Part shown: positions 3,142 through 45,291 of the stretch, piece by piece | Layout: the number at the start of each line of letters is the position of its first letter | Numbering within the stretch: the first letter of the stretch is position 1 | Source of the DNA: Naegleria gruberi | Lineage: Eukaryota | Reading direction: 5' to 3' (one strand) | Assembly: GCA_000004985.1 (NCBI GenBank) | Contig: GG738907.1 | Length of the DNA: 64,000 nt | Program-made: the position numbers and the translations under genes | The notes under the pieces: model-generated | The model's database searches: none | Told to the model about the DNA's origin: nothing | Seen by the model: only the letters and a program-made list of their open reading frames with translations

Positions 3142-6100
3142 TTAAACAGAAGAAACAGTTACTTTCTTTCGATGTGTCAAAAACCATAATCTCAGTCCAA
3201 ATGCTATACATGCCACAAGTCCCATACCTCCAACTATTGGAATACTAATTAAGGCAAATAAGGCATACATGCTATTATCATTGGATTGTGAACAAATATT
3301 ACTTTTACATCCATCTCCACAATAATTAGCTTGGCACTGATCACAATTTGATCCAGTCCAATAACCATCTGCAGAATTGGCTTTACACTGACATATGTTT
3401 TGTGAAATGCAAAGTCCGTGACCTCCACAAACAGCAGAATTGGTTTTTGGAATTTCAAAACATGTCCAAGAATCTGAATTGCCTGGAGTTTTTGTGGAAT
3501 TTTGTGTTGTTGATTGAGTAGTATTATTTACAAGAGTGTTATTATTACTTGTCGTGGTAGTATTTACATTATTGCCTATAAGTGTATTATTATTTACAAT
3601 TGTGTTATTTGAAGAGTTAGTATTTGTAATATTATTATTTGTTATATTGTTTACAGTAGAATTATTATTCAATGACACAGTCTCATTTGTATTCATTGTT
3701 GTATTATTCGAATTATTGACAGTAGTGTTATTTGTAATAGTATTATTTGTAACGGTAGAATTTGAATTAAGTGTTGAGTTTGAAATAGCGTCATTGCTTA
3801 ATGTTCCATTATTGTTTGGAATTGAATTATTGGTATTGGAATTATTCATCTCTAGAGTGGTAGTATTTACAATAATTGAGCAATCCAATCCCTTCCATCC
3901 AAATTGACAATCACACTTATTTACAGTTGAACAGTTTCCATTTCCGGAACACACTGAACTATCATTGGCAAAAATGTTAAAGCAAGAAGGGATGGAACAA
4001 TCGAATCCAAACCATCCATTAAAGCATTGACAAGAATCAGTTGCTGTGCAATTACCATTTCCAGAACAAACTGAGCTCTCATTGCTTACAATTCCAAAAC
4101 AAGTGGACAATTCACAATTATTTCCATAAAAACCAGGATTACAAATGCAAGTATTTGGTGAATTACAAACTCCTCTTGATGAACAAACTTTTGAAGAATT
4201 TGAAATAATTCCAAAACATTTAGAGAATTCACAAAATTGACCACCGTATAAATCTCCACAATCACAAACATCAGGTGCAAAACAAACACCCAAGCCATTA
4301 CAGACATTTGGATTGTTGGCAAAGGTTCCATTGCATGTACGAAGTGTGGATATTACTCTTAGTCGACTATTGTCAGAGTCAATTACAATTATTTCACCAT
4401 TTCGTCTTAAAATTACTCCAGATGGATTATTGATTTTTGAAGCGGAGGCAGTGGTTCCATCTTCACTGTAACCCAAATCACCAGTTCCTGTAATGGTGGT
4501 GATATTACCATTAGAGAGAACTCTTCTAATTCTATTATTGTACGAATCTGCAATCAAGAGTTCATCACCGTCAATGGCAATTCCTTGTGGATATTTGAGT
4601 TGTGCATTTGTTGCTTCGATTCCATCACCGTTATAACCTAATGTGCCTGTTCCTGCAACAGTTATAATTGTTCCATTAGTAAACATCTTTCTTATTCTAT
4701 TGTTATAAGTATCTATTTGAATTAGTTCATCAATTGAAGATTCTTATTTCACTTACCTGCAATGTACATGTTATTACTTGAATCAAATGCGATAGATTGT
4801 GGATAATTCAGCTTGGTATTGTTCGGTAAGAGATAATCACCATTAAAACCAACAGAGCCTCCAATAACTGTGGAAATATTTCCACTTGGTAATATTAGTC
4901 TAATTCTATGATTATACGTATCTGTAATATAAACAAGATCATTTGAATCAACAGTTACTGAAACTGGGGAATTGAGTTTCGCATTTGTTGCTGGAATTCC
5001 ATCGCCATTGTAGCCACCTAATCCAACTCCAGCTATAGTAAGAATTGTACCATTTGTCAAAATTTTTCTAATTCTATTATTACCAGAATCTGGTAAAGTT
5101 TCAATACAAAAAATAATGGAAGATTACTTACCTGCAATATAAATATTACCAATGGAATCAAATGCAATTCCTGTTGGTTTGTTAACTTGAGCACTTGTTG
5201 CCAAAATTCCATCTCCATTATAACCAAAAGATCCAGTACCTGCAATGGTTGTGATGGTCCCATCCAAGTACGAAATCTTTCTAACTCTGTGATTGCTTGT
5301 ATCTGTGAAAATCATTGAAACCTTAATAAATTTCACACAATCAACTGAAAACTTACCAGCAATGTAAATATTTCCCAATGAATCCAATGCAGCACCTTTA
5401 GGTTTACTCAATGCGCTCAATCTAGAATCAACATTTTCACCACAATATGATGGAGAACCTTGTCCAGCTATTGTGGTAATAAATCCATTTGAAATCTTTC
5501 TAATTCTGTGATTTCCCTTATCAGCAATATATAAATCACTTGTGTTCTTGGCAAAATTCATCAATTCAGGAGAGGCAAGAGTTGCCAAATTGACCGTAGT
5601 ATTATCAGTAAAACCATACAAACTCGTTCCTGCAAATGTTGTAATGGTTCCATTGGTAGACACCTTTCTAATTCTATTAGAATCTGAAAAATAAACTTCG
5701 CCTAATGATGAAACTGCAACTCCATAAGGTGAATTAATTTTAGCTAAGGTTGCCAGGCCTCCATCTCCATAATAATCACCTGTTCCAGTACCGGCTATGG
5801 TTACAATAGTGCCATTCAATAATACTTTACGAATTCTGTTATTATTGGTGTCAGCAATATAAATATTGTCTTTCGTATCAACAGCAACACCAAAGGAAAG
5901 AAACAAAGTTGCACTCGTAGCTTTCATGTTATCTCCATTGTAACCTGTGAAAAAGTAATAAATTAAAAAACAGTTCCGTTAAAATACATACCTTGAGAAT
6001 TGCTTCCTGCCACTGTTATAATTGTTCCATTGTTGAACACTTGGCGAATTCTATTATTGTTCACGTCGGTAAAGAGTAATTCTTCCTTGCTATTTAATGT

Positions 6101-7523: not shown

Positions 7524-8405
7524 TTTTTTTTCAATAGGAGTTTGAATCTAGTTGGATATTCGAATGTTTTATAGTTTTGGATTGAATGTTAAAGCAAATT
7601 CTTAATAATCTTCAAGTAACATTTATTTGAAAATCTTTGAATTGCTTTCATCCAATTTAGTTTGAATGTTACCGTGATTTTCACCGAAATGTCACTCTGA
7701 GTAGTTCAATTTTGATTCTACTAAAAGAAGAACATATGAAACACTTGAAATATGATTATATTCGAATCGTTTCACATGATTCTGCCCTCCAATAACATTA
7801 CGGTAAACTAATAACCTCAATGTTAATTTGAAACCAATCAGAAATTTATTTTTTACAACAAATATTATAAAGGTCAATAAGGAAACTTTATAAATTTTTG
7901 AGAATCAATACTACTAGTTTCGAATAGGTTCCGTTTGGAAATTTCTTGCACCTTTAGCAAGAGATAGCATTCGTCCTCAGCACAAACAAACATCACAACC
8001 CATCAAAAAAGTGTTTTCCCTCCATAAAAATAGAATTTACAGCTCTACCAAAAAAATTTGCAATCAAACTTTTCCTTGCCAACAACTTTCAATAGAAGAA
8101 GATAACCAAAATTGTTGTGTTGTGAGGCAAACCCTATATTCATCTATTCATCATCAAGAAGAAGAGAAGATTTATTCTGTAGTGTACCGTTCATTTGAAT
8201 TATTGTCTCTTGATTGTGATCATCATCAAGTCAACCCGGTTGTTCAAATCATCATTGTATAAAAAAACATCAAAACATCATTAGCATCATCATCAATATT
8301 ATTAACGTTAAACTTTTAAAAGAAACAAAATCATATAACAACAACAATAATAACAAATTTATAAATTTCTAAAGAGAAATCACAAGAAATAATAATAATA
8401 ACAAT

Positions 8406-9873
8406 ATGGGATTAGGAAGTTCAACGCATGCAGGAGAGGAATTTAGTGCTCCCAAGAGACAATCATCTGCTTCATCATCAACTCAGAAAAAGCCTGAAGA
8501 TGTTGTTTTGGAGAAGGTTTTAGCCAATTCGATTATTAAACAAAAACTTGGTAACAATATTCAACAAATGAAGATGTTTGCTCAGCAGTTGGCCTATCCA
8601 GAAGAATTGAAGGAATCGTATTTACACACTGATTGGGTACAAACAACAAAGTTGATATCAGACATTTCGACCAAAGTTAACGAAGATGTTTCTAATTTAA
8701 ATGATGGCAGCAGTAGCCAAGATTTGATTAGGAGAGGATCTCAATTACTTCAATCGACACAATCGGCCAATGATATGAAGATTATTGGCTCTTTTAATTC
8801 TACAATGAACTCACAAGAAGGAGATAATTTTAATAGCGAGCTTGCTAAACAGCCTCCTCTCCAATTGAAGGACAAGATTAGAATTAAATTATTAGTAACC
8901 GAAACTGCAAGAAATAATACTGATAGAACTATTAGACAATTGTTGTCGCCTGTACTGAATCAATTTAATGTTCTACCAGAGATGGGTATGTTCCATACTG
9001 CTCTTATTGTAGGTCCATGGAAATTGGAGGTATGTTCTAATTAACTGACATTTAACTAACATTTAATTTTCTAATTATGTTCTTCATGGTGGACAATGAA
9101 TATTAATCATCATCATCATTTAATAATAATAATAATATGAACTATAGTTTAATGATTCGGGTATTGTAGTACCTAGAAAAATCATGTCACAAGCAGCTGT
9201 AGTTACTGCTGATATTGATTATATTTCGACTGTTGACAGATTGGAACAAGTTATCGACAGTCTTGCTAAAGTAATTTGTAAATGGAACGTGACAATGTAT
9301 TATAAACAAACAGGTGGAGACAAGTCAAAATATGGAAATTGTCAAGATTTTGTGGATGACTGCATGGAAGCATTAGGAGTAAAATTAAACTTTGATGGAG
9401 CCTTGAAGAATTTCCTGACGCGTTTGAGAAAAACAGGAAATAGCAAACTTCAATTCGAAATGACCAGAGAATTTATTGAGACTTTTAATCTAGTTGAAAT
9501 TTATCCATCACTTCAGCGAGCTTTACAACAACACCAAGACAACTCGAGTAGTGGATCGAATAATTCTTCAGAGCAGGATGAAGATCCAGCTGGTGCTCTT
9601 ATTTTTAATACCCATAAGGAACTCGACAAGTTTGTTTGGATTTTGATGAATAAGGACTTTGAATTTCAAAATCATTACCCATGTGAATATCAACTTTTGA
9701 AATCATTTGATAGAGCTTTCTGGGTTAAGGCTATCACTTATCCAGACATGCAACAATTCCATCCACTCTATGAAGATGAGGAAAAGAATCAACCACCACC
9801 AAAGAATGAAGAAAGGAAACACAAGTGTCCTTTCGGAGATCCTTGTGCAGCATCATTCATTTATCTTCAATAA
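8406..9873 (+). CDS. LRAT/H-rev107 (NlpC/P60 papain-like) domain protein with an N-terminal MGxxxS myristoylation motif. Two exons.
   Basis: Exon 1 is 8406..9035 and ends ...HTALIVGPWKLE followed by a GTATGT donor. There is an in-frame acceptor at 9147 (exon 2 from 9148) or at 9168. The spliced product carries the LRAT-family His motif (FHTALIVG...GIVV) and the catalytic-Cys motif NCQDFVDDC (compare NCEHF). The domain therefore spans the two supplied ORFs, 8406..9044 and 9184..9873. The N-terminus is MGLGSS. Confidence 0.55.
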
Positions 9874-11630
9874 ATGTCACATTTTATTTCCAAATCACAA
9901 AAGAATCTCCTATCGATTCGAATATCTGAAATCGCCTCCTCCTTAATGTGGAAATAATTGGTAAAGTGTGCAACAGGTAACATTTCTGCTTTCATCAATT
10001 CAAAAGCATGATTATCAACCTTGGATGAGGTAAGGAAAGTTTTCACAACAAAGCAATCCTGATTCTTACGAAATGGTCTGAAAGAATACATGCTTCTCTT
10101 ATTGATTGTGAATTTTGGCATATTGAGTTTTTCCAATTCATTCCTAGTAAAGCCATTAATTTCTCCTCCATAATTAGTTAGGAAATGTCTTGGTTGTTGT
10201 TTCCTCTTCTTTGAAACGGCTGTGAATCCATCTTCTAGCATTTCTTCGCTTCTAGTCTTGTAAACTGTTGGCCTAGTTTCAGTAAGTGTCTTTTTGGATA
10301 GATCCATAATTAACCATTTGGAATTTTCAAACAATTCCAAGAGAGTAATCTCTTCTGTATTGGTTCCATTATTTGCCCTTTCTAAAAGAATCAAATATTT
10401 TGATTCTGTTAATTTACAAACTTCTCCAATTTTTAAACCTTCCAAGTGTTTTGTTAAGCTTTCCGAAAGAATTTCATCCTTTTCCAAAGTAAAAGCTGAT
10501 CCATTACTTCCAATAGAAAAAACATCAGAATTAGCAATCATGAACATGCCTTTGTGAGATGGTAATTCACAAGAAAGGAGCAGTTTCTTTGAGTTTTGAA
10601 GTAAACTAGGAAGAGGAAATAATCTCTTCTCAATTGTATCCAAATCGTACAATACCAACTGATTTTCATTGATTGTGAGAGTATTTGTAGACTTTCTATC
10701 TGGGAATATTCGATTCAAAGGAGTGAATTTACCAGAAATTAATTCAGATTCTCTTTCAAATGGTGAACTCTTTACATACTTTTCAACCAAAACTCGCGTG
10801 TTTGCAATTTCCAATCTATCCATAATTAATCTAAACTGTACATACATTCCTTCACTCAAGAATGTGAATTTCCCACTATTCACAATATGATTATCCTCAT
10901 TCTCAATTTTCACGTCATTTTCAAAAGTAAACATGTAATGATTCCTCCTGGAAAAATCACCTTCCAATTCCAAATACTTTTTCATCTTGCCATCGATTTC
11001 CAAATCCAAGAATATGAAATCCTCCAAATCACTCACAATCCTAAACTTTCTCATATTTATGAGTGCAATCTTGTATTGAGATATTCCCTGAGTGAAATAC
11101 TCTCCCTCCACACGTTCAGAATCATGATGAAACAAACCACTCGTGTCCTTCCTAATCATCACCAACATGAAAGCATTCGTCATTGCACTCTTAAACCCCT
11201 CAAATTCTCTCAATTCCACGCCATTCTCCTCTACAAAACTAAAGTGCGCAGCCATCATTTTACTCTTAAACAATTGTCTTCTCTTTTCCTTCCGAGCATC
11301 CTTAGCATTCATCGTTGTATTTACATTCTTATTATTTACATTATTTGATGATGATGAATTATTCCTTTTCAAAGCCTTTGATTTTGTATTATTATTATTA
11401 TTATTATTAATTTTAATATTATTATTATTCAAAGCCTTTGATGATGCGGAATTAATTGGCTTAAATGTTTCATGGCAAATCAAGCCTAAAGGAATGACCT
11501 CAGTGGAGGCGATGAAACTCTGTTGTGTTTCCTCTGGTTGATAATAGTAGTAATCATCGGTTTGGTAGAGATCGTTTTCATAGCCTAATAGACTGTTATA
11601 TTTGATCGGAATGATACGATCGGCCACCAT
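9867..11630 (-). CDS. hypothetical protein of 587 aa with a poly-N low-complexity N-terminal region
   Basis: A long ORF with an ATG start at 11630. The coding (ATT)n microsatellite and the duplicated ttcaaagcctttgat motif at 11375..11447 encode KALNNNN..NNNNNNN. I recognised no domain. Confidence 0.45.
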   Translation of the reverse strand: MVADRIIPIKYNSLLGYENDLYQTDDYYYYQPEETQQSFIASTEVIPLGLICHETFKPINSASSKALNNNNIKINNNNNNNTKSKALKRNNSSSSNNVNNKNVNTTMNAKDARKEKRRQLFKSKMMAAHFSFVEENGVELREFEGFKSAMTNAFMLVMIRKDTSGLFHHDSERVEGEYFTQGISQYKIALINMRKFRIVSDLEDFIFLDLEIDGKMKKYLELEGDFSRRNHYMFTFENDVKIENEDNHIVNSGKFTFLSEGMYVQFRLIMDRLEIANTRVLVEKYVKSSPFERESELISGKFTPLNRIFPDRKSTNTLTINENQLVLYDLDTIEKRLFPLPSLLQNSKKLLLSCELPSHKGMFMIANSDVFSIGSNGSAFTLEKDEILSESLTKHLEGLKIGEVCKLTESKYLILLERANNGTNTEEITLLELFENSKWLIMDLSKKTLTETRPTVYKTRSEEMLEDGFTAVSKKRKQQPRHFLTNYGGEINGFTRNELEKLNMPKFTINKRSMYSFRPFRKNQDCFVVKTFLTSSKVDNHAFELMKAEMLPVAHFTNYFHIKEEAISDIRIDRRFFCDLEIKCDIY

Positions 11631-11753: not shown

Positions 11754-13371
11754 ATGTCGCAACTCAAACTGCTATTCTCTTTGATGCTGCTCATTTCCAT
11801 CATCCTGGTCATGACGATGAATTTTCAAATTAATGGAAAAATCAATCATCACACATTGATGAATATTAATTCCTCCGATGTAGACAAGAAGAAGATGATG
11901 AATTATAATAATCAAAAGCGAGTCAGGGTAAAATCAAACTCTCAATGTGAATGTTCTTCCTATCCAAATTTAGAAATTCATGATGACGAAAAATTGTCTC
12001 AAATTTTGTTGGAGGCCAAAATGGAATTTATGAAGGGTGTTGTGATGGAAAAATTCAATAGTTTGGATGTTACGTTGATGCTACCTGTCAATGGGACTAA
12101 GGTTTGGAGGAGAGGAAGTGTCAATCCTAGAAAATTGACCTATCCAGCAAGTTGTGTGAAATTGGCTTATTTATTTAGTTCATTCCATTGGTGTAAGAAT
12201 GTGAAGAGGGAGAGAATTGTGGATTGTATTGATATTCATACTCATCCAATGATTACTTGGAGTGATAATTTGGAGACTGGATATGTTGTGGATGCCATCT
12301 CTGAACAATTGAATTTGTACGATTTGAATTCTGTCAATGATGCAAGATTTCATTCATGGTTAGAGAAGAGAAATTTCACAATGAAATATTTGGAGAGTAG
12401 AAATTTGATTGGAAATCAAATTTTCATTGCCAAGACCTATCCAACCAATAGTGGACAAATGCCAATTGGAGCAGAGGCAGTTCAGAGATCTTTCACTGGA
12501 CCTAATGCAATGGCTCCATGTTGTGCTGCTTCATTGGTATTGCAGACAATGTATGGACTCGAGAAGGAGGAAACTGATTATGCAAAGAAGTTGTTATTCC
12601 ATAGAAGATTTGATGATTGGAGTGCTATTGCTCCAGCTCTTCCACCTGGAAGTAAGTTTATTTTAATATTATTCGAAATTGACTACTTATTTGAAATGCT
12701 CATCAAATGAATGAATTTGTAATGCAGCTCTCTTACATAACAAGATTGGAAATGCCTATGATAATATTAATGACCTAGTTCATCTTGTTCTTCCAAATGG
12801 AAAGGAAGCAATTGTGGCCATCTTATCCAATGGTTATCAGAGATCAACTGATTCTACTATTCTAGCTCGTTTCACAGAAATTCTTCTTCAAAAATTGGAA
12901 TTATTGAAAGGTTTGCCACCAATTATTACCTTGACCACTGATTCTGGAAATGCTCGTTACAATACACAAGAGGGATGGATCTATTTCAATAATCAAACTA
13001 TTCAAACCATTGGAAAGGACAGAATTGGAAACTCGATTGTTGTTTTACCTCCAAATCAAAAAGTGGCCACAACTCTCTCATGGGATGTTGAGCTACCTGA
13101 AGATGGACTCTACGAAATTACTGTCTATACAGCCACTGTTGAAACATCAGATGGATCTAGTCAATTTGATGTTCCTTGTATTGTTAATTACTATCCGAAT
13201 GCTAGTTCTGGTTCTACTTATCAAACTCGTTTCTCAACTTGGACAAAGATTGGCGACTATTTACTCAACAAGGGTTTGAATAAGAATGTTGTGCAAATTC
13301 AAGTTCCTCTCAATTATCCGTATCCAGTCTCAGTCAATGCCATCAAGTTTAGCAAGTATCCAAATTATTAA
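11754..13371 (+). CDS. secreted class-A beta-lactamase-like (serine beta-lactamase/transpeptidase fold) protein with a C-terminal extension. Two exons.
   Basis: Exon 1 is 11754..12651 with a GTAAGT donor at 12652. Exon 2 is 12728..13371. The 76-nt intron ends in CAG, and the junction is in frame with the downstream ORF 12814..13371. There is a signal peptide (MSQLKLLFSLMLLISIILV). The motifs appear in canonical order: ASCVK (SxxK), WSDNLETG (SDN), SEQLNL (ExxLN omega-loop) and NKIG followed by AIVAILSNG (a KTG-like strand). Confidence 0.6.
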
Positions 13372-13538: not shown

Positions 13539-16500
13539 TTATGTAAAATAATATTTATTTAATGGTAAAAAGCGATGTTTAAGCCTCTTCTTCCTTGAGG
13601 TTTGCGTAATTAATATTGTTGTAATTTTCCTTCTTTTCATCACCACTGCCCGAAGAGCCTTCTTCTTTCTTCTGTAAATAACAAAGGCTACCACTCCTAC
13701 AACAAGAATAACAATTACCACTATTAATAAGATTAATCCCAATCCAATGAGGTAGTAATAGTTGTGATTTTCTCCAATAATAACACTGTTAGAGTCTTTT
13801 GGAAGGCCTTGCTGACTTGATTCATGAGTTGGAGGAGGATTTGGTGCAATCATTTGGGATATGATGGCAACGGAAGATGTCCATGATTTTGAGGAGCAGG
13901 ATACTGAGAAGATGGTTGCTTCTCCTTGTTCTATTTGATTAAGGATGGTTGTAGTTACATTATCAGTGTTCCAGCTGTTAGAATCATAGAATGCACATGA
14001 AAGACTTGTTGCTGCCTCTTTCTGAACTGAAATGTTGTGCATGTATAAGTGGATAGGCTCTTTGAGATTTGTTATTTCAATTCTTTCTGTTGTTCCATTT
14101 TGCAATAGAATGAAATTAACTATTGGACTAACTACTTTGGAATTCTCTTGTGATTTTGATGATTCAGGAATTACAGAGGAAGCCATTGTTAGAATCGTTT
14201 GTCCTAAAGTATTATTCAAAAATACATATTCTGAAATAGTGGAAGGTAGGACCATGATGATATTTTCATACTTTTCGAAGGTGATTGTGAGATGATTGTT
14301 AATATTTTGCACTTCCACAATGTTTGTTTCTGTTTCATTTGATTTCGATTCAATATTTGAACAATAGAAAGAATCTTTCTCAGATTCTGGACACAACACA
14401 TTTTGATCACATTCAGCTCCAAAATATCCATACTTGCATTGACACTTGTCTAATGAAGAGCAGAATCCATTACCAGAACAAACACGTTCATCAGAGAATG
14501 CAATACCAAAACAGTTGAATAACTCACAAGAATCACCAAAGTAGCCACCAGAACATTCACACTTATTTGGAGATACGCAATTCCCTCTGGACGAGCAAAC
14601 TGTCTTGTTGGACATTAGAATATCAAAACATTTGAAAAGTTCACATTCATCTCCTTCATAACCCTCTAAACATTCACATTCATTATATCCAATACAATTA
14701 CCTTTTCCAGAACAAACATTATTAGCAGAAGGTATCTTTCCATAGCAAATTGTATTATCGAGGGTCAATTGAAGCATTGGATTTGGCTCTCCAGCTTTAC
14801 CAGAAATAGCAATAGAAAGTTCCACATAGCTCGATGAAAATTCTGTTATTGGAATAATTAGTGATCTGTCATGGTCTCCATTCGAAGAGTAGCTGCTGTA
14901 GTCTGGGGAGTAAATTTGTTTAGCAACACCGACATTCACATAACCTGAAACAGCCTTAATATTCAAAACGAGATAGTCAGAATATGGCCGTCCGTAATAA
15001 TTGAGGATGTTGGGCATTCCATCAGTAGATGCCTTCATCAATATAGTATCTCGTAAACGGATGAAGGCGTCATCTAAGAAGGCAGATAATTTGAATGTGG
15101 AAGCAACTAGCCCGTAAACTCCAATGTAATAGCATCCAACTTGTTGATTGCTTAACATGAGAACTTGACCGTATTGAGTTTCAGGATCCACTTTCCAATT
15201 ATAATGAGTTTCATTCGCAGGTTGGCAGTCATTAGAAACATACATGATTGTGGAGCCGGTAATATTGATCAACGCAAAGGAAAGATGTGAAGCAATGTTT
15301 TTTTTGAGATCGAATCTGAATTGATGAATCTCATTGTTAGCGACACTATCTTCCCCAGAAATTCTATTCAAAGGTAATACTCTGTAAATAATTTTCACTT
15401 TCAACTTATACGAAACAGGAGTTGAAGAACTCGTCTTGACAGCAATGTAAAGGTAACTTCCTGAAAAGAGGATTTCCTGGTTGTAAATACCATTAATTTC
15501 TTGTGGTGCACCATCTTGCCCTATTGGTTTAGGATTTTCGGTACTGTAATAAAGGTTAATGACACCAACACTTTCAATTGAAATGAGCAATTTCATTGAA
15601 CCATCCAATGGATATTGGTAAAATTGATAGAAATCCGTATTTACAATTTTAGAGGAAACAATCTGGTCATTTGATAAGAGAATTGACTTGTTTGATTGTA
15701 AAGCCATTATTGAGTAGTATGAAAGTGCTGAAAGTTCTGAATAAGTTCCTTCCACTGTAACACGAAACTCATTTGAAGTTATGAGTTTAGAGATTCCTGG
15801 AATTAGCAATGCATTTGGTGACCGTGTACTCCAATTATAATCTCTTGGAGAAGGAAAGGTATTCTTGGTATTGACATACAACTCAACGCTTCCAACTGAT
15901 GTTGAAATGAAGAACATTATATCAGTATTGTTAAGTTCCTCTTGCTTGGCTTTGAAAGTGAAGTATCCATATTTTCCATAAGGTACAACAAACAATCCAA
16001 CTCTTCTTCCATTGATCAATTCTGTTGGAGGATTTTCTGTTGAATATGTCAACGTATAAGAAGAGTCAACTTCACCAAAAACAGAAAATTTGAGATCACT
16101 TCTCTCGTTAATAATCAGTTGTCCAGGTTGACCTACTGTTCCATTAGCTGCCCTAGTGTGAACATATTGATTTGGTCTTTCACTTTCAAAGGAAAGGAAC
16201 AATTTCACACTTCCAAAAAATACAGTCAATGTAAGGCTACTTTTTAGCATATCTTTCTTGTTATGTTGGTAGTAATTCAATTGATTTGCAGCAACTGTTC
16301 CATTCACAGCAACATCCTCTTGTAAAAGCACGTATTCTGGCATTGATTTTACGGTCAAAGTTACCAATCCAATCTTGATTCCAATGTAATAAGTGCCAAC
16401 CTTTGAATCACTCATAGGAATTTGCTTTACTTTTTCTCTATTTGCCAACATGTAATAATCATAACTGTTCTCAGTTGGTTTGGTTCCATACTTGATATAA

Positions 16501-17447
16501 AAGTCTACCATCTTGGTTGTTCTCACAATAACTTCAAACCTTAAATTTTGTAATATCAAGTTATTGTAAACAAAATAGTGCAAATCTGAAGTTGGTGAAT
16601 CCTCCCTGAATGCAATACTAAGACTCTCAGATATCATTGTTGAAGTATTTGCTTGACATGAAACTATTGTAAACTTGTTGTCAACAAAATATCCATACAC
16701 TCCAATCCAGTACTCTCTTGGAGAATTTTCCTCCACTGGAATGGTAACAGAATCAGGTCCATAACTACGTGATGCATAATCATAATCTGTACTGGTTGGA
16801 AATTGAGATATTCCTGAAACATATAGATCAGAATCTCCCTCTTGAGTACCAATAGAAATATAGAGCTTTGTTGGTAGTTGACCAGTGACTTTAACTTTAA
16901 AATAGGAATAACCATTTCTCTCTACCTGACTGTATTGTGGTTGACCATCAACTAGAGTAACATGTGCTGTTTAGGTTCGTTTCCAATAGTAAAAATTTCC
17001 CATGTTTTACAACTTACCTGGACTAGTACTTCCCCACAAGTTGAAAGTAAACCTAGCAGGAGTATTACCATACACACCAATTGTGAAAATATTTCCATTA
17101 CTTGGCCATGTTCCATTCGCAGTGACAAGTAAACTTGGATACGAAAGCAAACACTTTTCACACTGTAAAGTTGGTTGACCATACGTGCTAACATACATGT
17201 AGACTTCACCACTCAACGGAGTCAATGCAAATGTAGCAACAGCACTAGAAAAAAGACTTGGATCTACATAGTAATAATGCCATCCTCCTTCTTCTACCAT
17301 ACCATTTATAGGAATACCAATTTGTTGAATGATTTCTGCTTGATTTTGAGTGGACAGTAAAATATTTAATAATAAAATGATGGTTATCAACAAGAGGGAA
17401 ACAGGAAACAGCTGTGTACGGACCACCACTGGTGGTGTGGAAACCAT
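13539..17447 (-). CDS. large type-I membrane protein of about 1285 aa with a signal peptide, a big extracellular region, three tenascin-type EGF repeats, a TM helix and a short basic tail. Two exons.
   Basis: Exon 1 is 17447..17018 (signal-peptide-like MVSTPPVVVRTQLFPVSLLLITIILLLNILL). A 52-nt intron runs 17017..16966, GTAAGT...CAG. Exon 2 is 16965..13539, in frame with the supplied ORF 13539..16736. The EGF repeats read CYGKIPSANNVCSGKGNCIGYNECECLEGYEGDECE and two more. The TM helix is YYLIGLGLILLIVVIVILVVGVVAFVIY followed by RRKKK. Confidence 0.7.
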
Positions 17448-39460: not shown

Positions 39461-42400
39461 ATGCCACCAAAATATGTCATTCAACAGCAAAAATTGAAAC
39501 AACAGGCAGTGTCTAATCAATCACCACAAGCAAATTCTAATGGTTTATTTGTTCAACTGGGTGTGTTACCACAAACCAATCCACAACCACAACCAACTTT
39601 AGTTGATTTACCTCCTCTTGTTGTTCCCACCAACAGTATCATTACTCCGTCCACACCAAATGATCAATCATCTACACCACTGTCAGCTGTTTCAACATCA
39701 TCCATAAGTTTGCAAGCATCATCAACACCAACTAGTTCATCACCTCCTGCAGCCAAACCAGCAACAAAGAACGAAACTAAAAAACCAAAAGAGAAAGACA
39801 AGAAAGAAAAGGACAAGAAGGAAAAAAAAGAAACGAAGGATAAGAAAGAAAAGAAAGAAAAGAAGGAAAAGAAAGAAAAAAAGGAGAAGGAAGAGAAGGA
39901 CAAGAAGAGAAAAAAGGTTCCAGAAAAGTCTTCTGAAAAAAGTAAAAAGAAGAAATCCGATGCTTCTACTCCAACAATCAACACAACATCAATTACCAGT
40001 AGTAGTGCAACTCCAACAGTACCATCTCCACAAAAGGTTGTAAAAGATGTTGAAATGACAGATGTCTTAACAAAGGAAGAAGTGATCAAAGCAGTGTTTG
40101 AAAATATTCCAAAACAAGTTATTGTTAAAATATCATGCTTGGATTCTAATGAGTTCCAAATTGATGAAGATATTGTATTAAGTGAAGAGGGAATTCCAAT
40201 TGTTAACGGTATCAAATTGTTTCAATCAATTGATTGGAACAATTCATTAGAAGATCATGAATCTTTCTTTAATTTCAACTGCTCACTTGTTCTTTCAACT
40301 ATTGCCAGCGAAAGTTCAATAACAGTTCAAGAGTTTATTTATTCTATTGATGAGGCACTCAAATTGAATCAACAGTATTGTAAGGATTTGATGCGTTCTA
40401 TGAATATTTCACACGAAAACTATTCCTTTGTGTACGATTTGCAAACCAACTCAATGAGCTTGATTTTCAAGAGAGAAACAGAAATAGTGGAACTTGCTGA
40501 AATGCTCTACGAAATCAAGACTATTAGAGAACTGAAGGAGGCTGAAGAAATGGAAGCCGAGGAGCAAATTATTACAGAGGGACCAATAGATGAAATTCAA
40601 GTCAATTTTGAGTTTAATTTTGAAAAGGAGGAGAAAAAGTATGTATTGGAGCTTCGTGCACCAAAGGCAAAATCGTACAAAACCATTGTCTCATCCCATC
40701 TCCAAATTGCTGAAAGTGATATTTTGAATTATGGTGAAATAGCTAGCGAAACACTGGTTGAAGCTAATGGTGTATTACCAACAAAACTGAAGGACGTTCT
40801 AGCTAGCAGAGTTGATGTAAAGGTAGTGCATCGTCATGTCTATTATGAGCAGAGAGTAATTTCATATGAAATATTCGAAAGAATGAAGGATATTATTGGA
40901 CAGACTGAGTTTTCATTATATAATCATCTCTGCTTTCTAGTTTGTACGCCTGATCAGAATACCTTATGGCATCAGACAATGGAAAGATTGGAAAGATCCA
41001 ACATTCTGCCACCAAATACCAAACTTTCACATGTCTCAATCAAGTATAGAAAAGATCACGTCCAGATGTTCGAAAAATTCAGAGACAGAATTGCAAATGA
41101 AAAAGAAACTCTCTTCATTATAATTGTAGACGAGTGTCACTATGCAATTACCAAAGAAGGTGCTCACGACAAGATTGTTAATGATGAGCTCGCTCTTCAA
41201 CACAATAACTTTTTCATTCTATTGGTGAGCGCAACCCCTTACAATGTCCTCTCAGTTGATAGTAATATTCCAGAAGTGTACAAACTCTTGAACAAACATG
41301 AAGATTTGGAAGTTGGTACAAAAATTCAAGTCACTTCCACGAATTATAACAAGATAGGATTTGGTGTATTGATCAAATATGAGGAGCAATATTCTACTCC
41401 TGTGTATGAGCTAATTGAATCCAAGGATCAAAATATATTTTTGGAGGATGTAGAAGAAATAACTGGTAAGATTATACCACTCATGAGTGATGAATCTGAA
41501 GAGAAAAACTTTGAAATTGGAGAAGTTGTGGAATATGAAGAAGTTCCTGACACAAATCCTCAACCAACTTCTAAGAAATCAATCTCAACAGTCAGGTACA
41601 TAGTCAAATCCCTAACAAGAAACTTGGAAATGGAAGTAAACCTCTCAGATAGAGATTTACGAAAGATTAATACTTCAAAAACTAGAAGAATTACAAATCA
41701 AGCAATTGGCAATATTCCAAAGGGAAAACTTGTTGAAATACATGATATAATCAAGTGGAGTGTAACTTTCAAACCAGTGAATAATGATCCAGCAGTATCC
41801 AAAGAATACACCCTCAATGATTGGCAATTCAAACACCTTACCAATTACGAGGAGTACAATGTTGTGAGTTGGAGTGAAGTACAAAAGCGTACAACCTTGG
41901 AAAGAACAGAGCAAGATAATCAAACGAAGAAATACTTCAGCAAACAGGATTACATTAATTCTCTCAAGCAAGAAGAACCACTTGTTTTCAAAGATTTAGA
42001 ATTTGAAAGAGTTCTGAAAAAGATCAAGGTTGCATCCAATACTTTAAGACCAATCATGTTAGCTATTGACTATCACTTTTGGATTATTACTGAAGGATTG
42101 AGAAGAAAACTATATGATGAAGTTACTGCTTACAGACATTTTAATTCCATTGATGCTGCTCTTGATATTGAACCAAAGCACAAAATATACGTAGAGATTT
42201 GTAAATTAATTTATCTAGCTTACTTGTGTGCTAAACATTTGAAGATGGATGATGTTTTGGAGAATCAAGAATTTGATGACGAGGACGATGACTATGATAT
42301 CCTTGATGAAACTAAAAAGACCGTAAAGAAAAAGAAGGAAGATTTGGAAAAGAAAATTCAACATTTACTGGAATATTTGAAAAATAAGTTCAAGCCAAAG

Positions 42401-45291
42401 AATCCTGAAAGATTATTTTCAGTTTTAATCGATCAAGAATCCCACACCAAAACTCTCATTAATACCTTGATAGAATCTGGTAAAATTCCAAATGATAACA
42501 GTGTGACGTTGAGAGGGAAAATGAAAATATTGAGAATTACAACTACAGATTTTGCCAACACTGTTTTCAAGCTATTGAGAAGTTCCATTTCCAAAGTAGC
42601 AGCAAGTGGCTACATTTCACCAGATATTCTCATAGACACTGGTGAAAATCCACTCACTCTCGATCAATTATCTTTCATCTCAAGAATGAAACTTGCTGAA
42701 AAAGTTCTGTCCACAGAAGATTATGAAGTTTTCCAAAGAAAACCAAGTAGACTTTCTAAGGAGAAAAAATCTTTGGAATACATTAATTTACACAATTTCC
42801 CTTGCATTCTAATCCTAGTTGCCAAAGGTCGTCAGGGAGATACCTTCCCTAATTCATTTGATTGCTTGGATATGAGAGCCAAAGGTGATTCCTTGCCAAA
42901 TTACTCATCTTTTACACAAGAATTTGGTCGTTTGTGTAGATATGTGGACGATTCTGACAAGAAACCTATTGCACTTGTAACAGATTCAATTTATAAGGAT
43001 TTATCCAAGTGCGGTGAAGGTGGAGCTACAATAGTAGGTAACACGAGCATGAAGCTTGATACCTACATGACCAAGATGAAAGGAAAGGAAGGTCAAAAGT
43101 ATTGGTCCATTGTTACATTCTGTAGAAGAACCATGACTGCAGTTGATGGAAAAAAGCTTAAAGGTGAAAAGAAAAGTCCTCCTTCCTATGATTCAATGAG
43201 ATCAGGTTCTGATAAGGATATCTCCTCAAAGAAAAATCACAAGAATCGTATGTTACTATTCGCCGAACCACAAGTAAGTATATTTATAGTATTTGTGAAT
43301 ATTAATAACAATGAAATCAGATTGGTAAAACAGACGCCTTTATTCACTGTTTGGAAAGAGTAATTCATGACATTGAGAAAAATAGAAGTGAGCGTATGGT
43401 TGATATTAATGAAGAAGAACAACCATACGATGATAATTCTATTGGTGTTGATGCTGTTATTTCTAACTATTCTGAATTGGAACGTGTATTACCTTACTTT
43501 GAAAATTTACAAGGTCAACAAAGGGGTGAATACAGCTCAATTTCTGCTGGAAAGTATGCCAAGCTTGTTTTGAAAACCAGAGAGGAAATATTCACTGAAT
43601 TTACACCTGATAAGATCAGGTCTGTACACAAATTATCAAGAATTGAATCTTTCATGACAAGTTCCAATCATTATTGGAGCAAGTTTATGGAAAAATTGAG
43701 TAGCCACAACTTTGATTTGGAAACATTCCAGACATTTGATGGAAGATACAATGATATTTTACATCCTTCATCTGGATATAGAACGCTGAAGTTTGGAGAA
43801 TCAAGTTCTACATCATCCTCGAAAGAAATTATTGAGAAAGTTGACTTATCCGAAAAGATGAATATTGGTCTTGCAGATATGAATTATAAGGATAAATTAA
43901 TTACCATCCAATTGCAAAAGGTATTTGGATTGAAGATGGCCATGCTAGAGTCTTGCTTTCCAGGAGAAAAGCCATTAATTTCCATTCCATCAAGCAAAAT
44001 GAATTGGTTTGTAATTTCATCAGATCAACAACATGTCACCAGATTCCTACTGCCTGATGATCCTAATGGTGTTAGAAGTTGGATATTTGTCCCTTCTTGG
44101 AATAGAAGTGCCTCAGGTTTATTCTATCTGAAAAGTATGAAGGTTCCATATAGACAAGTAATTGTTGTAAGACATTCCGAATTCAAGTGCTATAGAAATG
44201 TTTTGGGAGGAGATTTTGTGATTATGAGCTTACCAGATATTGTGAATATGAAAGATCTTTTCAAACTATTCCCAATCCCAACAACTGAACAAAGAAAGTT
44301 ACAGTACAATGAAATAGTGGATGGAAAAACTCTTATTGATTATGAAATGAAGGACGATGTTGGAGGAATTGGCTACTCTAGAATGGTCATTCAAATTCTT
44401 TCCTATGCATTTGGTTTGGAATTTATTTGGATGATGGATGATAATTGCCATCACTTTGAGAAGGTTGAAAATGGTAGAAAGGTTCCTTGCTCATTGGCAG
44501 AAGTTTTAATTCCACTCGAGAAAATTGTCTATGATGAAAACAAACCAATTTCAACTATTACTCAGTCAATTCAACCAATATTTAAAAATAGACAAAATCC
44601 ATCTCTGAATATCACTCTTAATGATAGTATAAGCAGTTTTACTCCTGGAAAGGATAAAATTGCCATGATTGGAGTTAGAAAGGATGGATACAGATATTCT
44701 TCATCGATCAACTACAAACCATTTGTAAACAGTTTCACCATTTGTTCTCTCTTCCTTTTGAATACAAAAAGAACAATTGATTCTGGTTGTATATTCCCAT
44801 CAAGAAGATATTTAGAAGACATTGAATTTGAATATTTATGTTTGGAAAGAGGCTTATATTGTGTGAAATCACAAAACTATTTCCTTCATAAACCTGCGAA
44901 TCCGTTGAGAATAGATTATGTTTTACCAGTTCCAACCATGTATGAAATTGAAGAGGAAATTTTTAATACCATTTCAAACTCAATTTCCACCTCTCAAGCC
45001 AACGAACCTTCAAATGAATTCTTAGCAATCAAAGATTTGATCAAGAATTCAAATCCTCAAGCAATCATATTTGATGATTCTAGGAGTTTCATCATGCAAG
45101 CATCTTCAATCTTTTTGACAGCTCCCACTTTTGAAATGTTCACCTTTTTTCAAACAAACGACATTAGAGAAAATCTCAGATCCATCTTGAGCTTCCTTCC
45201 TTTTGCCAAATCGCAAACCTCTGTGTTTTATTATTCCCCAAGTTCTGATGAATCATCAACCAAAGAATTGATACTAAAGTTTGTGAAATAG
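39461..45291 (+). CDS. very large protein of about 1930 aa: a K/E-rich N-terminal repeat region, a central SF2-helicase/ResIII-like core with motifs II to VI but no recognisable Walker A, and a long C-terminal region. Two exons.
   Basis: Exon 1 is 39461..43273, with a GTAAGT donor at 43274. The 47-nt intron ends in TCAG at 43320. Exon 2 is 43321..45291, in frame with the supplied ORF 43351..45291, whose M is a TTG. Motif II is LFIIIVDECHYAI (DECH). Motif III is FILLVSATPYN (SAT). Motifs V and VI are ILILVAKGRQGDTFPN and TQEFGRLCRY (QxxGRxxR). The region upstream of DECH (..HLCFLVCTPDQNTLW..) has no GxGK[ST]. The 39790..39910 stretch is a (GAA/AAG) repeat encoding KEKKEK. Confidence 0.6.

Follow-up and report, generated by a model that had tools for sequence, protein, structure and literature searches.

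A class-A β-lactamase-like gene of Naegleria gruberi probably encodes a horizontally acquired, glycan-tethered serine hydrolase

A stretch of 64,000 nucleotides from contig GG738907.1 of the Naegleria gruberi genome (assembly GCA_000004985.1), hereafter the window, carries at positions 11754 to 13371 of the forward strand a gene that a first reading of the sequence (the original prediction) took for a secreted class-A β-lactamase interrupted by a spliceosomal intron. Such a gene in an amoeba raises two questions, namely which reaction its product catalyses and how it came to be there. The results described below point to a two-domain serine hydrolase, acquired horizontally, that would be tethered to a glycan and act on an amide or ester borne by that glycan, and we regard this reading as reasonably probable. 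The class-A fold of the original prediction held up, and the marks specific to class-A β-lactamases, i.e. the Glu166 motif, the K(T/S)G element and a sufficient score with the profile bla_class_A, all failed.

The N-terminal catalytic domain (amino acids (aa) ca. 75 to 360; 11976-12909, with the intron inside it) was assigned to the Pfam family Beta-lactamase2 (PF13354) by a significant profile match at the level of the family. All of the 70 aligned relatives matched both the C-terminal family Golvesin_C (PF25275) and PF13354 (best E-values, 8e-77 and 2e-16), and the match of the window protein itself to PF13354 was below threshold (E = 1.7e-3). When the window protein alone was compared with the PDB sequences by phmmer, no match was returned; PBP-A, the class-A β-lactamases and the xanthan lyase 6f2p were reached only by a profile of the family. 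With this profile, PBP-A (Tll2115 of Thermosynechococcus elongatus, PDB 2j7v), a cyanobacterial DD-peptidase of class-A fold, was the best solved relative (E = 3e-9), followed by true β-lactamases at 1e-5 or weaker. The original prediction had allowed for a better match to a glutaminase or a DD-peptidase; class A and PBP-A ranked best, DD-peptidases scored below them, and glutaminases were not among the matches listed in the profile and fold searches. An hhalign comparison of the family with a single TEM-1 sequence gave a spurious 37-column match (probability 0.6), which was not used. An AlphaFold2 model of the Naegleria fowleri orthologue, built from a 71-row alignment, had a mean predicted local distance difference test score (pLDDT) of 90.3, and Foldseek returned agreement with the class-A fold (template-modelling score of ca. 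0.7 normalised to the target). The domain thus has the class-A β-lactamase/PBP-A fold; it retains the acylation residues of the penicillin-recognising serine hydrolases.

Conservation of the motifs was read from an alignment of 70 sequences and a site table of 119, with a neighbouring family of ca. 300 aa (described below) as the outgroup. The SxxK motif (S133-C-V-K136; 12150-12161), comprising the nucleophilic Ser and the Lys, lies within the invariant segment YPASCVKLAY; in the model, it is placed at the N-terminal end of helix 127-145. The SxN motif (S170-D-N172; 12261-12269) aligns to the SDN of PBP-A; D171 is variable, being replaced to give SSN in rotifers, and only SxN is invariant across the family. 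The KxG motif (K305-I-G307; 12742-12750) is assigned to strand β3 and is associated with strand 296-304 of the model. S133 and K136, S170 and N172, and K305 and G307 are essentially universal in the family. Three of the four motifs named in the original prediction are thus genuine and subject to selection. Its ASCVK and SDN elements are present in family-invariant columns, and the conservation check proposed with it found the equivalents of Ser70, Lys73, Ser130 and Lys234 invariant and that of Glu166 not at the motif nominated for it. The KTG-like element stood in part: its Lys and Gly are nearly invariant, and its canonical Thr/Ser is absent, the middle residue being Ile in the window protein and any of 12 residues across the family (I/T/N/A/V/P/L/Y/S/M/D/W). 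In β-lactamases and DD-carboxypeptidases, this Thr/Ser binds the substrate carboxylate.

The nominated Glu166 motif, SEQLNL read as ExxLN, is actually E184-Q-L-N187 (12303-12314), an ExLN sequence. Glu at position 184 is found only in Heterolobosea and a few unlabelled relatives, most other members having G, S or N, and N187 is invariant in the family and not in the outgroup. In a hidden Markov model (HMM) alignment to PBP-A, the motif falls near TEM positions ca. 144 to 147, at the end of helix H5 and off the omega loop. The spacing is not canonical either, with 37 residues from S133 to S170, 14 from S170 to E184 and 121 from E184 to K305, as compared to 60, 36 and 68 in TEM.

The order of secondary-structure elements in the model is that of TEM with three differences: the H2-H4 connection, in the region of TEM residues 104-105, is shortened from ca. 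33 to 9 residues, an insertion follows H5, and the omega region is enlarged to ca. 32 residues. This omega region holds the family-specific invariant motif K227-T-Y-P-T-N-S-G234 (12432-12455), which forms a loop, and G239-A-E241 (12468-12476), which opens a 10-residue helix (helix 234-243 of the model) just before N251. N251 occupies the position of TEM D179 in the HMM alignment, and the Glu at position 241, which all family members and the majority of the outgroup sequences have, is a candidate for the deacylation base. The omega loops are not alignable at the sequence level, and we infer the equivalence of Glu241 to Glu166. One family member of 592 aa (P0124) has lost its catalytic residues, with E, Y, F and V in place of S133, K136, S170 and K305, respectively. 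It still has E241 and N251 together with the greater part of the KTYPTNSG-type loop and is possibly a pseudoenzyme.

The original prediction had noted a C-terminal extension of 150 aa. A domain of about this length is present (aa ca. 368 to 513; 12931-13368); instead of a eukaryotic addition, it is a β-sandwich module of the Golvesin_C type, present in 70 of 70 members and related to families 6, 35 and 36 of the carbohydrate-binding modules (CBMs). The Pfam Golvesin_C match of the window protein was below threshold (aa 392 to 507, E = 1.4e-5). The family profile matched the xanthan lyase 6f2p in its C-terminal module with an E-value of 3.8e-23 and CBM35 modules at ca. 2e-5, and the profile match together with the β-sandwich places the module in Golvesin_C/CBM6-CBM35-CBM36-like_2. 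The last ca. 145 aa of the window protein belong to the same domain family as parts of golvesin, a Golgi/post-Golgi membrane protein of Dictyostelium, of xanthan lyases of Paenibacillus and Bacillus and of Cbeg4/5 of Bacteroides; in the last, the same InterPro domain is a lectin (PMC9166713). Unlike in the window protein, the catalytic partner of the module in these proteins is a polysaccharide lyase of family PL8, none at all or the uncharacterised N-terminal part of golvesin, and homologue searches found no Dictyostelium protein homologous to the catalytic domain. When the C-terminal domain by itself was used in a profile search for Golvesin_C architectures and golvesin, only 11 fragments were returned. 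By profile, the module is a CBM35-like Golvesin_C domain that is predicted to bind sugar and to have been inherited from bacteria together with the catalytic domain.

The protein begins with a hydrophobic stretch (aa 1 to 23; 11754-11822), either a signal peptide or a type-II signal anchor, in which aa 4 to 22 form the sole strongly hydrophobic segment of the protein (the only 19-aa window with a Kyte-Doolittle mean of 2.45). The homologues of Willaertia, rotifers and bacteria likewise start with hydrophobic, signal-peptide-like leaders. The window protein is thus predicted to be targeted to the secretory pathway by a cleaved leader or a type-II anchor, so that the signal peptide of the original prediction stands as one of two forms of the same segment, and since the homologues carry such leaders, secretory targeting appears to be common to the eukaryotic copies. 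The leader is followed by an unconserved low-complexity linker (aa 24 to 62; 11823-11939), which is gapped in all homologues in the alignment A1, and by C64-x-C66, which is typical of the eukaryotic copies. At the other end of the protein, the bdelloid-rotifer copies P0007, P0012, P0017 and P0023 have a Ser-rich stretch and then a hydrophobic tail (A1 columns ca. 920 to 960), which resembles a glycosylphosphatidylinositol-anchor signal; the copies of amoebae and bacteria lack this ending.

The PF13354+PF25275 architecture defines a family that is small and mainly bacterial, and the window protein is a full member of it, having all of its hallmarks (YPAS[CT]VK, SxN, KT[YW]PTNSG, GxE, N251, KxGxAY and the C-terminal Golvesin_C). 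A search of 5.8 billion sequences gave 84 clusters, and a search of 1.84 billion sequences with the N. fowleri orthologue (P0001) as the query gave 155 representatives at E ≤ 1e-3, 57 of them at E ≤ 1e-30. A literature search found no paper on the PF13354+PF25275 family, and the Willaertia genome paper merely lists 'beta-lactamase' copies. Database labels of the members are 'hypothetical', 'class A beta-lactamase-related serine hydrolase' and, apparently in error, 'protein phosphatase methylesterase 1'; the orthologues appear in the sources under the name 'beta-lactamase class A catalytic domain-containing protein'. The methylesterase label is given by JGI to P0008, P0010, P0039, P0045, P0064, P0065, P0068, P0074 and P0076; the enzyme so called has an unrelated α/β-hydrolase fold, and the label looks like a propagated annotation error.

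The named bacterial carriers are all metagenome-assembled genomes (MAGs) and belong to Sumerlaeota, Phycisphaerae, Planctomycetales, Armatimonadota (Chthonomonas), one Gloeobacterales cyanobacterium and many Steroidobacteraceae. Sumerlaeota have several paralogues per genome, up to three per MAG, some of them in tandem (8001-9683 and 9778-11247 in locus L087; also L004, L008 and L091) and some with fn3/Ig extensions. Degradative functions are frequent among the bacterial gene neighbours. In three Sumerlaeota loci, a gene for a protein resembling glycoside hydrolase (GH) family 39 with a CBM9 lies directly upstream on the same strand; in Chthonomonas, the gene is flanked by genes for a GH106 enzyme and an S9/S15 hydrolase; and in a planctomycete, a gene resembling those of carbohydrate esterase (CE) family 15 and acetyl xylan esterase (AXE) lies upstream. 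In four Steroidobacteraceae loci, the genes for NamZ (exo-β-N-acetylmuramidase, GH171) and an FGGY kinase are immediately upstream. One Steroidobacteraceae subclade has an N-terminal fusion to a fatty-acid hydroxylase (PF04116) that is closest to the ornithine-lipid hydroxylase OlsE; the fusion was seen in L088 (8001-10373), L029, L030 and L034, with NamZ and FGGY directly upstream and an amine oxidase downstream. Clustering of the neighbours in 80 bacterial loci yielded mostly family-level synteny of Steroidobacteraceae (cyclase, FG-GAP, cystathionine lyase, M20 peptidase and EamA) with no obvious functional link.

The eukaryotic carriers comprise N. fowleri, Willaertia magna, the bdelloid rotifers Adineta and Rotaria and metagenomic contigs of undefined protists, three of which (those of P0004, P0005 and P0034) are plainly eukaryotic from their neighbours (RecQ/C2/Peptidase_S10, KH/Smr/Kelch and RNase III/proteasome/SNARE). 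The orthologue search suggested with the original prediction thus found copies in both N. fowleri and Willaertia, and the gene is rare in eukaryotes, as had been claimed: it is confined to Heterolobosea, bdelloid rotifers and undefined protists in a family of 155 representative clusters in total. A neighbour-joining distance tree was calculated from 281 columns of the catalytic domain and rooted with the ca. 300-aa family. The family was separated from the outgroup with a bootstrap value of 100%, and Heterolobosea were supported by 99%. A clade of 25 sequences contained all 11 known eukaryotic sequences and 14 unlabelled ones that share with them a eukaryote-specific Cys pair, C256-C257, which is exclusive to this clade and constitutes a synapomorphy. 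Bacteria were monophyletic in none of the 60 bootstrap replicates, so the eukaryotic copies appear nested within bacterial diversity. Since they form one clade among bacterial sequences, the best reading is an old horizontal acquisition from bacteria, before the split of Naegleria and Willaertia. In such a history, the complete two-domain gene would have passed from a bacterium to a eukaryote, then spread among phagotrophic eukaryotes or been lost extensively, and an intron would later have been gained in the Naegleria lineage. A search of viral contigs found no homologues and hence no evidence for a giant virus as the vector.

Taken as a horizontally acquired, glycan-tethered hydrolase, the window protein may work as follows. 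The enzyme would be tethered by its CBM to a glycan chain. Ser133, with Lys136 activating it and Ser170, Asn172 and Lys305 assisting, would attack an amide or ester that this glycan bears as a substituent, and an acyl-enzyme would form. For deacylation, water would be activated by Glu241, an invariant residue of the rebuilt omega region, which would make the protein a hydrolase and not a transpeptidase. In a bacterivore, stem peptides might be stripped or cut by the enzyme inside the phagosome or on the surface of the cell, alongside glycan-cleaving enzymes. As the family has not conserved the Thr/Ser of KTG, a β-lactam or a free D-Ala-D-Ala terminus is probably not the substrate. The stem peptides of peptidoglycan are the most likely substrate, a choice that we make tentatively; they are ranked first because of the adjacency of NamZ, the position of PBP-A as the nearest solved relative and the bacterivorous carriers. 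All the identified eukaryotic carriers, i.e. Naegleria, Willaertia and bdelloid rotifers, feed on bacteria. Second in this ranking is an esterase or amidase acting on other glycans, and a β-lactamase is a distant third.

Several observations weigh against this reading. The role of Glu241 is deduced from its conservation and its place in the order of secondary-structure elements, and the KTYPTNSG loop was modelled with a pLDDT of 62, from which the segment is probably a mobile loop. Many bacterial loci have housekeeping neighbours only, and the neighbourhood links are heterogeneous; the NamZ link is limited to one subclade of related genomes, and the GH106, CE15-like esterase and GH39-like+CBM9 genes point equally to polysaccharides other than peptidoglycan. 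The 25-member eukaryotic clade had a bootstrap value of 64%, which became 45% when the P0034 group was added, and this moderate support comes from a simple distance tree.

The comparison with known systems bears on the same question. In its chemistry, the window protein would resemble an acyl-enzyme hydrolase of the PBP-A or DD-peptidase type. PBP-A resembles the window protein in having SxxK and SDN in matching places. It is a peptidoglycan DD-peptidase that lacks the canonical omega-loop Glu166, with Leu158 there (PMC11189452). The two proteins are only 16% to 17% identical, and their omega regions are not alignable. In PBP-A, the KTG(D) element is canonical and the omega loop short; the window protein, for its part, differs in the variable middle residue of K-I-G, the enlarged omega region KTYPTNSG...GAE, the short H2-H4 connection, the fusion to a CBM and the eukaryotic secretory targeting. 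A functional analogy only is offered by AmiE (YbbE) of Bacillus subtilis, a secreted exo-muramoyl-L-alanine amidase that strips peptides for NamZ; within the amiE-nagZ-namZ operon, it is this serine hydrolase that frees the N-acetylmuramic acid ends of peptide (PMC8054146). AmiE has no CBM, unlike the window protein. We take its β-lactamase-type fold to belong to the class-C-type PF00144 branch of the penicillin-recognising superfamily and not to PF13354. The nearest neighbour outside the family is the ca. 300-aa family with the pattern 'YPASVVKL...DSDNDAT...QKTW...GRE...SKAGWT' (P0178 to P0224; 27% to 30% identity, E = 1e-9 to 1e-4), for which no solved structure was found. It shares with the window protein YPASxVKL, K-T-[WY], a Glu matching E241, N251 and a K-x-G without Thr; it differs in consisting of a single domain without Golvesin_C, and one of its members is fused to an amidohydrolase.

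The strongest competitor, a possibility that we place just below the hydrolysis of peptidoglycan stems, is a carbohydrate esterase or amidase directed at other glycans, which would remove acyl or aminoacyl groups from uronic-acid- or rhamnose-containing polysaccharides such as exopolysaccharides or algal and plant walls. It draws on the relationship of the CBM35-like module to the xanthan-lyase module and to uronic-acid-binding CBM35s; we know, however, of no carbohydrate esterase with a class-A fold, and the nearest solved relative, PBP-A, acts on peptidoglycan. The gene neighbourhoods divide in the same manner, those of Sumerlaeota, Chthonomonas and Planctomycetales (GH39-like+CBM9, GH106 rhamnosidase, CE15/AXE-like esterase and GHL10) agreeing with the esterase and the adjacency of NamZ in Steroidobacteraceae suggesting peptidoglycan. 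The fn3/Ig extensions of the Sumerlaeota paralogues, which are frequent in secreted carbohydrate-active enzymes, and the lack of conservation of the carboxylate-binding Thr of KTG also speak for an esterase, whereas the eukaryotic carriers are bacterivores and not polysaccharide specialists.

It is improbable that the gene encodes a genuine class-A β-lactamase directed against the β-lactam antibiotics of soil and water. The window protein scored 13.2 bits with the curated NCBIfam equivalog profile bla_class_A (NF033103), for which the cutoff is 200 bits, and the family and outgroup members scored 19 to 30 bits, none above 30. TEM, CTX-M, BlaC and PenP share with it the class-A fold, the positions of SxxK, SDN and Lys-x-Gly and an Asn/Asp at the end of the omega region, and their name has been given to the orthologues; these enzymes are only 11% to 19% identical to the window protein, which lacks E166xxxN170 in its canonical place (the motif proposed for it being coincidental) and the Thr/Ser of KTG, its middle residue of KxG being freely variable, and which has an extra CBM. 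An invariant Glu of the omega region could also replace Glu166. An obligatory CBM, however, would be senseless for a small-molecule substrate, the H2-H4 region is reduced from ca. 33 to 9 residues, and amoebae and rotifers lack a peptidoglycan in need of protection.

As to the origin, a vertically inherited, ancient eukaryotic gene that was lost in most lineages, with any transfer having run from eukaryotes to bacteria, is very unlikely. One eukaryotic clade extending across Heterolobosea, rotifers and undefined protists, and the C64-x-C66 and C256-C257 features common to it, could be accommodated by such a history. Bacteria, however, were never monophyletic, and Gammaproteobacteria branch first under outgroup rooting; the outgroup family, whose source organisms are not recorded, looks bacterial and has one member with an amidohydrolase-type fusion. 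The family is also missing from almost all sequenced eukaryotes, being limited to 155 representative clusters altogether, and PMC6264785 describes bdelloid rotifers as notorious recipients of horizontally transferred genes.

The open reading frame (ORF) starting with the ATG at 11754 has 318 codons and ends with a stop at 12710, inside AT-rich intron sequence, and a second ORF (12814-13371) lies in a different frame. Excision of 12652-12727 restores an in-frame coding sequence (CDS) of 1,542 nt for 513 aa, which ends with the TAA stop at 13369-13371. Exon 1 (11754-12651) encodes aa 1 to 299 and the first base of codon 300, as read from the ORF listing, the spliced translation and a tblastn search back to the window; exon 2 (12728-13371) supplies the remainder of codon 300 to aa 513 and the stop. 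The intron between them (76 nt, GTAAGT...CAG, phase 1) splits the codon of Thr300 as A|CT and has a GC content of 24%, as compared to 36% in the CDS and 34% in the window. In an alignment of the spliced protein, the junction LPPG|TLLHNKIG is gap-free against the intronless Willaertia and bacterial homologues. The N. fowleri orthologue (FDP41_013034), which is 67% identical to the window protein, has two introns, the second of which is at the identical codon and phase (Thr A|CT after LPPG), and the Willaertia orthologue has none. A metagenome contig of 2.1 kb (L001) retains the intron, with exons 99.1% and an intron 93.4% identical to those of the window gene; the differences (5 of 76 positions in the intron and 14 of 1,542 in the exons; Fisher p = 0.0014) correspond to a ca. 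7-fold higher divergence of the intron. Because the gap-free alignment, the intron position in N. fowleri and the faster divergence of the intron are three independent results, the splice is considered real. The intron thus has GT-AG boundaries, restores the frame and is conserved in position in an orthologue, as expected of a spliceosomal intron, and the 76-nt GTAAGT intron of the original prediction was borne out.

Six of the 10 amino-acid differences between the window protein and L001 are within aa 1 to 56, and the ratio of nonsynonymous to synonymous substitutions between the two was uninformative with only 14 differences. The N. fowleri gene has an extra 148-nt phase-1 intron right before the KTYPTNSG motif (8662-8809 in L003), which is absent from the window gene.

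A tblastn search found a single copy of the gene within the window. The surrounding genes are eukaryotic (EGF/teneurin-like, RasGEF, RCC1/Kelch and GREB1-type helicase), and because of these neighbours, contamination is excluded at the level of the sequence and the gene is placed in a eukaryotic chromosome. Together with the shared intron and the nesting of the eukaryotic copies within bacterial diversity, this setting upholds the claim of an old horizontal acquisition rather than contamination. Bacterial contamination, an assembly artefact, a dead pseudogene or a non-catalytic lectin, which might be considered since the closest named non-heterolobosean relatives are bacterial or rotifer, has a negligible probability and is refuted, as far as sequence evidence reaches, by the intron shared with N. 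fowleri, the similar GC content of CDS and window, the eukaryotic genes on both sides, the 99% identity to an independent metagenome contig and the integrity of all family-invariant catalytic residues.

With the alternatives weighed, a horizontally acquired, glycan-tethered hydrolase accounts best for the data. Its scaffold and chemistry are familiar; its omega region, its obligatory fusion to a CBM and its eukaryotic distribution are distinctive. As a bolder and rather speculative proposal, the family may represent a novel class of enzymes built on the class-A scaffold, namely CBM-tethered serine amidases/esterases that cleave peptide or acyl groups from glycans such as peptidoglycan or exopolysaccharides, with the catalytic water activated by a Glu241 relocated to a rebuilt omega loop, and with one transfer from a bacterium to a phagotroph followed by spread from eukaryote to eukaryote (Heterolobosea, undefined protists and bdelloid rotifers) as a tool for the digestion of prey. 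If the inferred function holds, the penicillin-recognising serine hydrolase superfamily would be extended by glycan-tethered hydrolases that have a rebuilt omega loop and lack the residue binding the carboxylate of β-lactams or D-Ala-D-Ala, which would provide, beside PBP-A, another natural example of how a deacylating base can be positioned on a class-A scaffold. The finding corrects an annotation and offers a tidy case of horizontal transfer with what may be a new active-site arrangement. Resistome surveys should not score as resistance genes the proteins of amoebae, of rotifers and of many MAGs that are labelled 'class A beta-lactamase domain'. For the evolution of eukaryotes, the finding is a clean example in which a degradative gene from bacteria has acquired introns and secretory targeting and is found in several unrelated bacterivores. 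Current understanding is not overturned; phagotrophs commonly acquire bacterial hydrolases by horizontal transfer. N. fowleri is a lethal pathogen, and a secreted or surface hydrolase that humans lack could be of minor use as a marker.

Apart from the gene itself, the window showed no synteny with the locus of N. fowleri or that of Willaertia. In W. magna (L089, 126-5910, minus strand), a 1,911-aa ORF with a reverse-transcriptase domain (RVT_1) lies 90 bp from the orthologue. The upstream neighbour in the window is a divergent gene for a protein of 587 aa with Asn-rich runs (9867-11630, minus strand), which matched no Pfam family; the two start codons are 123 bp apart, and the pair may have a short bidirectional promoter region in common. 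Large flanking ORFs on the minus strand (13539-16736 and 3142-4686) contain teneurin-like EGF repeats and also NHL repeats, and the EGF-repeat ORF of 1,065 aa ends in the manner of a type-I membrane protein, with a hydrophobic segment and a basic tail after it. Farther away, a 1,300-aa ORF (39461-43363, plus strand) matched the circularly permuted superfamily 2 helicase of GREB1 proteins (PF20692, E = 1.9e-130) and represents a GREB1-type protein in a heterolobosean-like genome.

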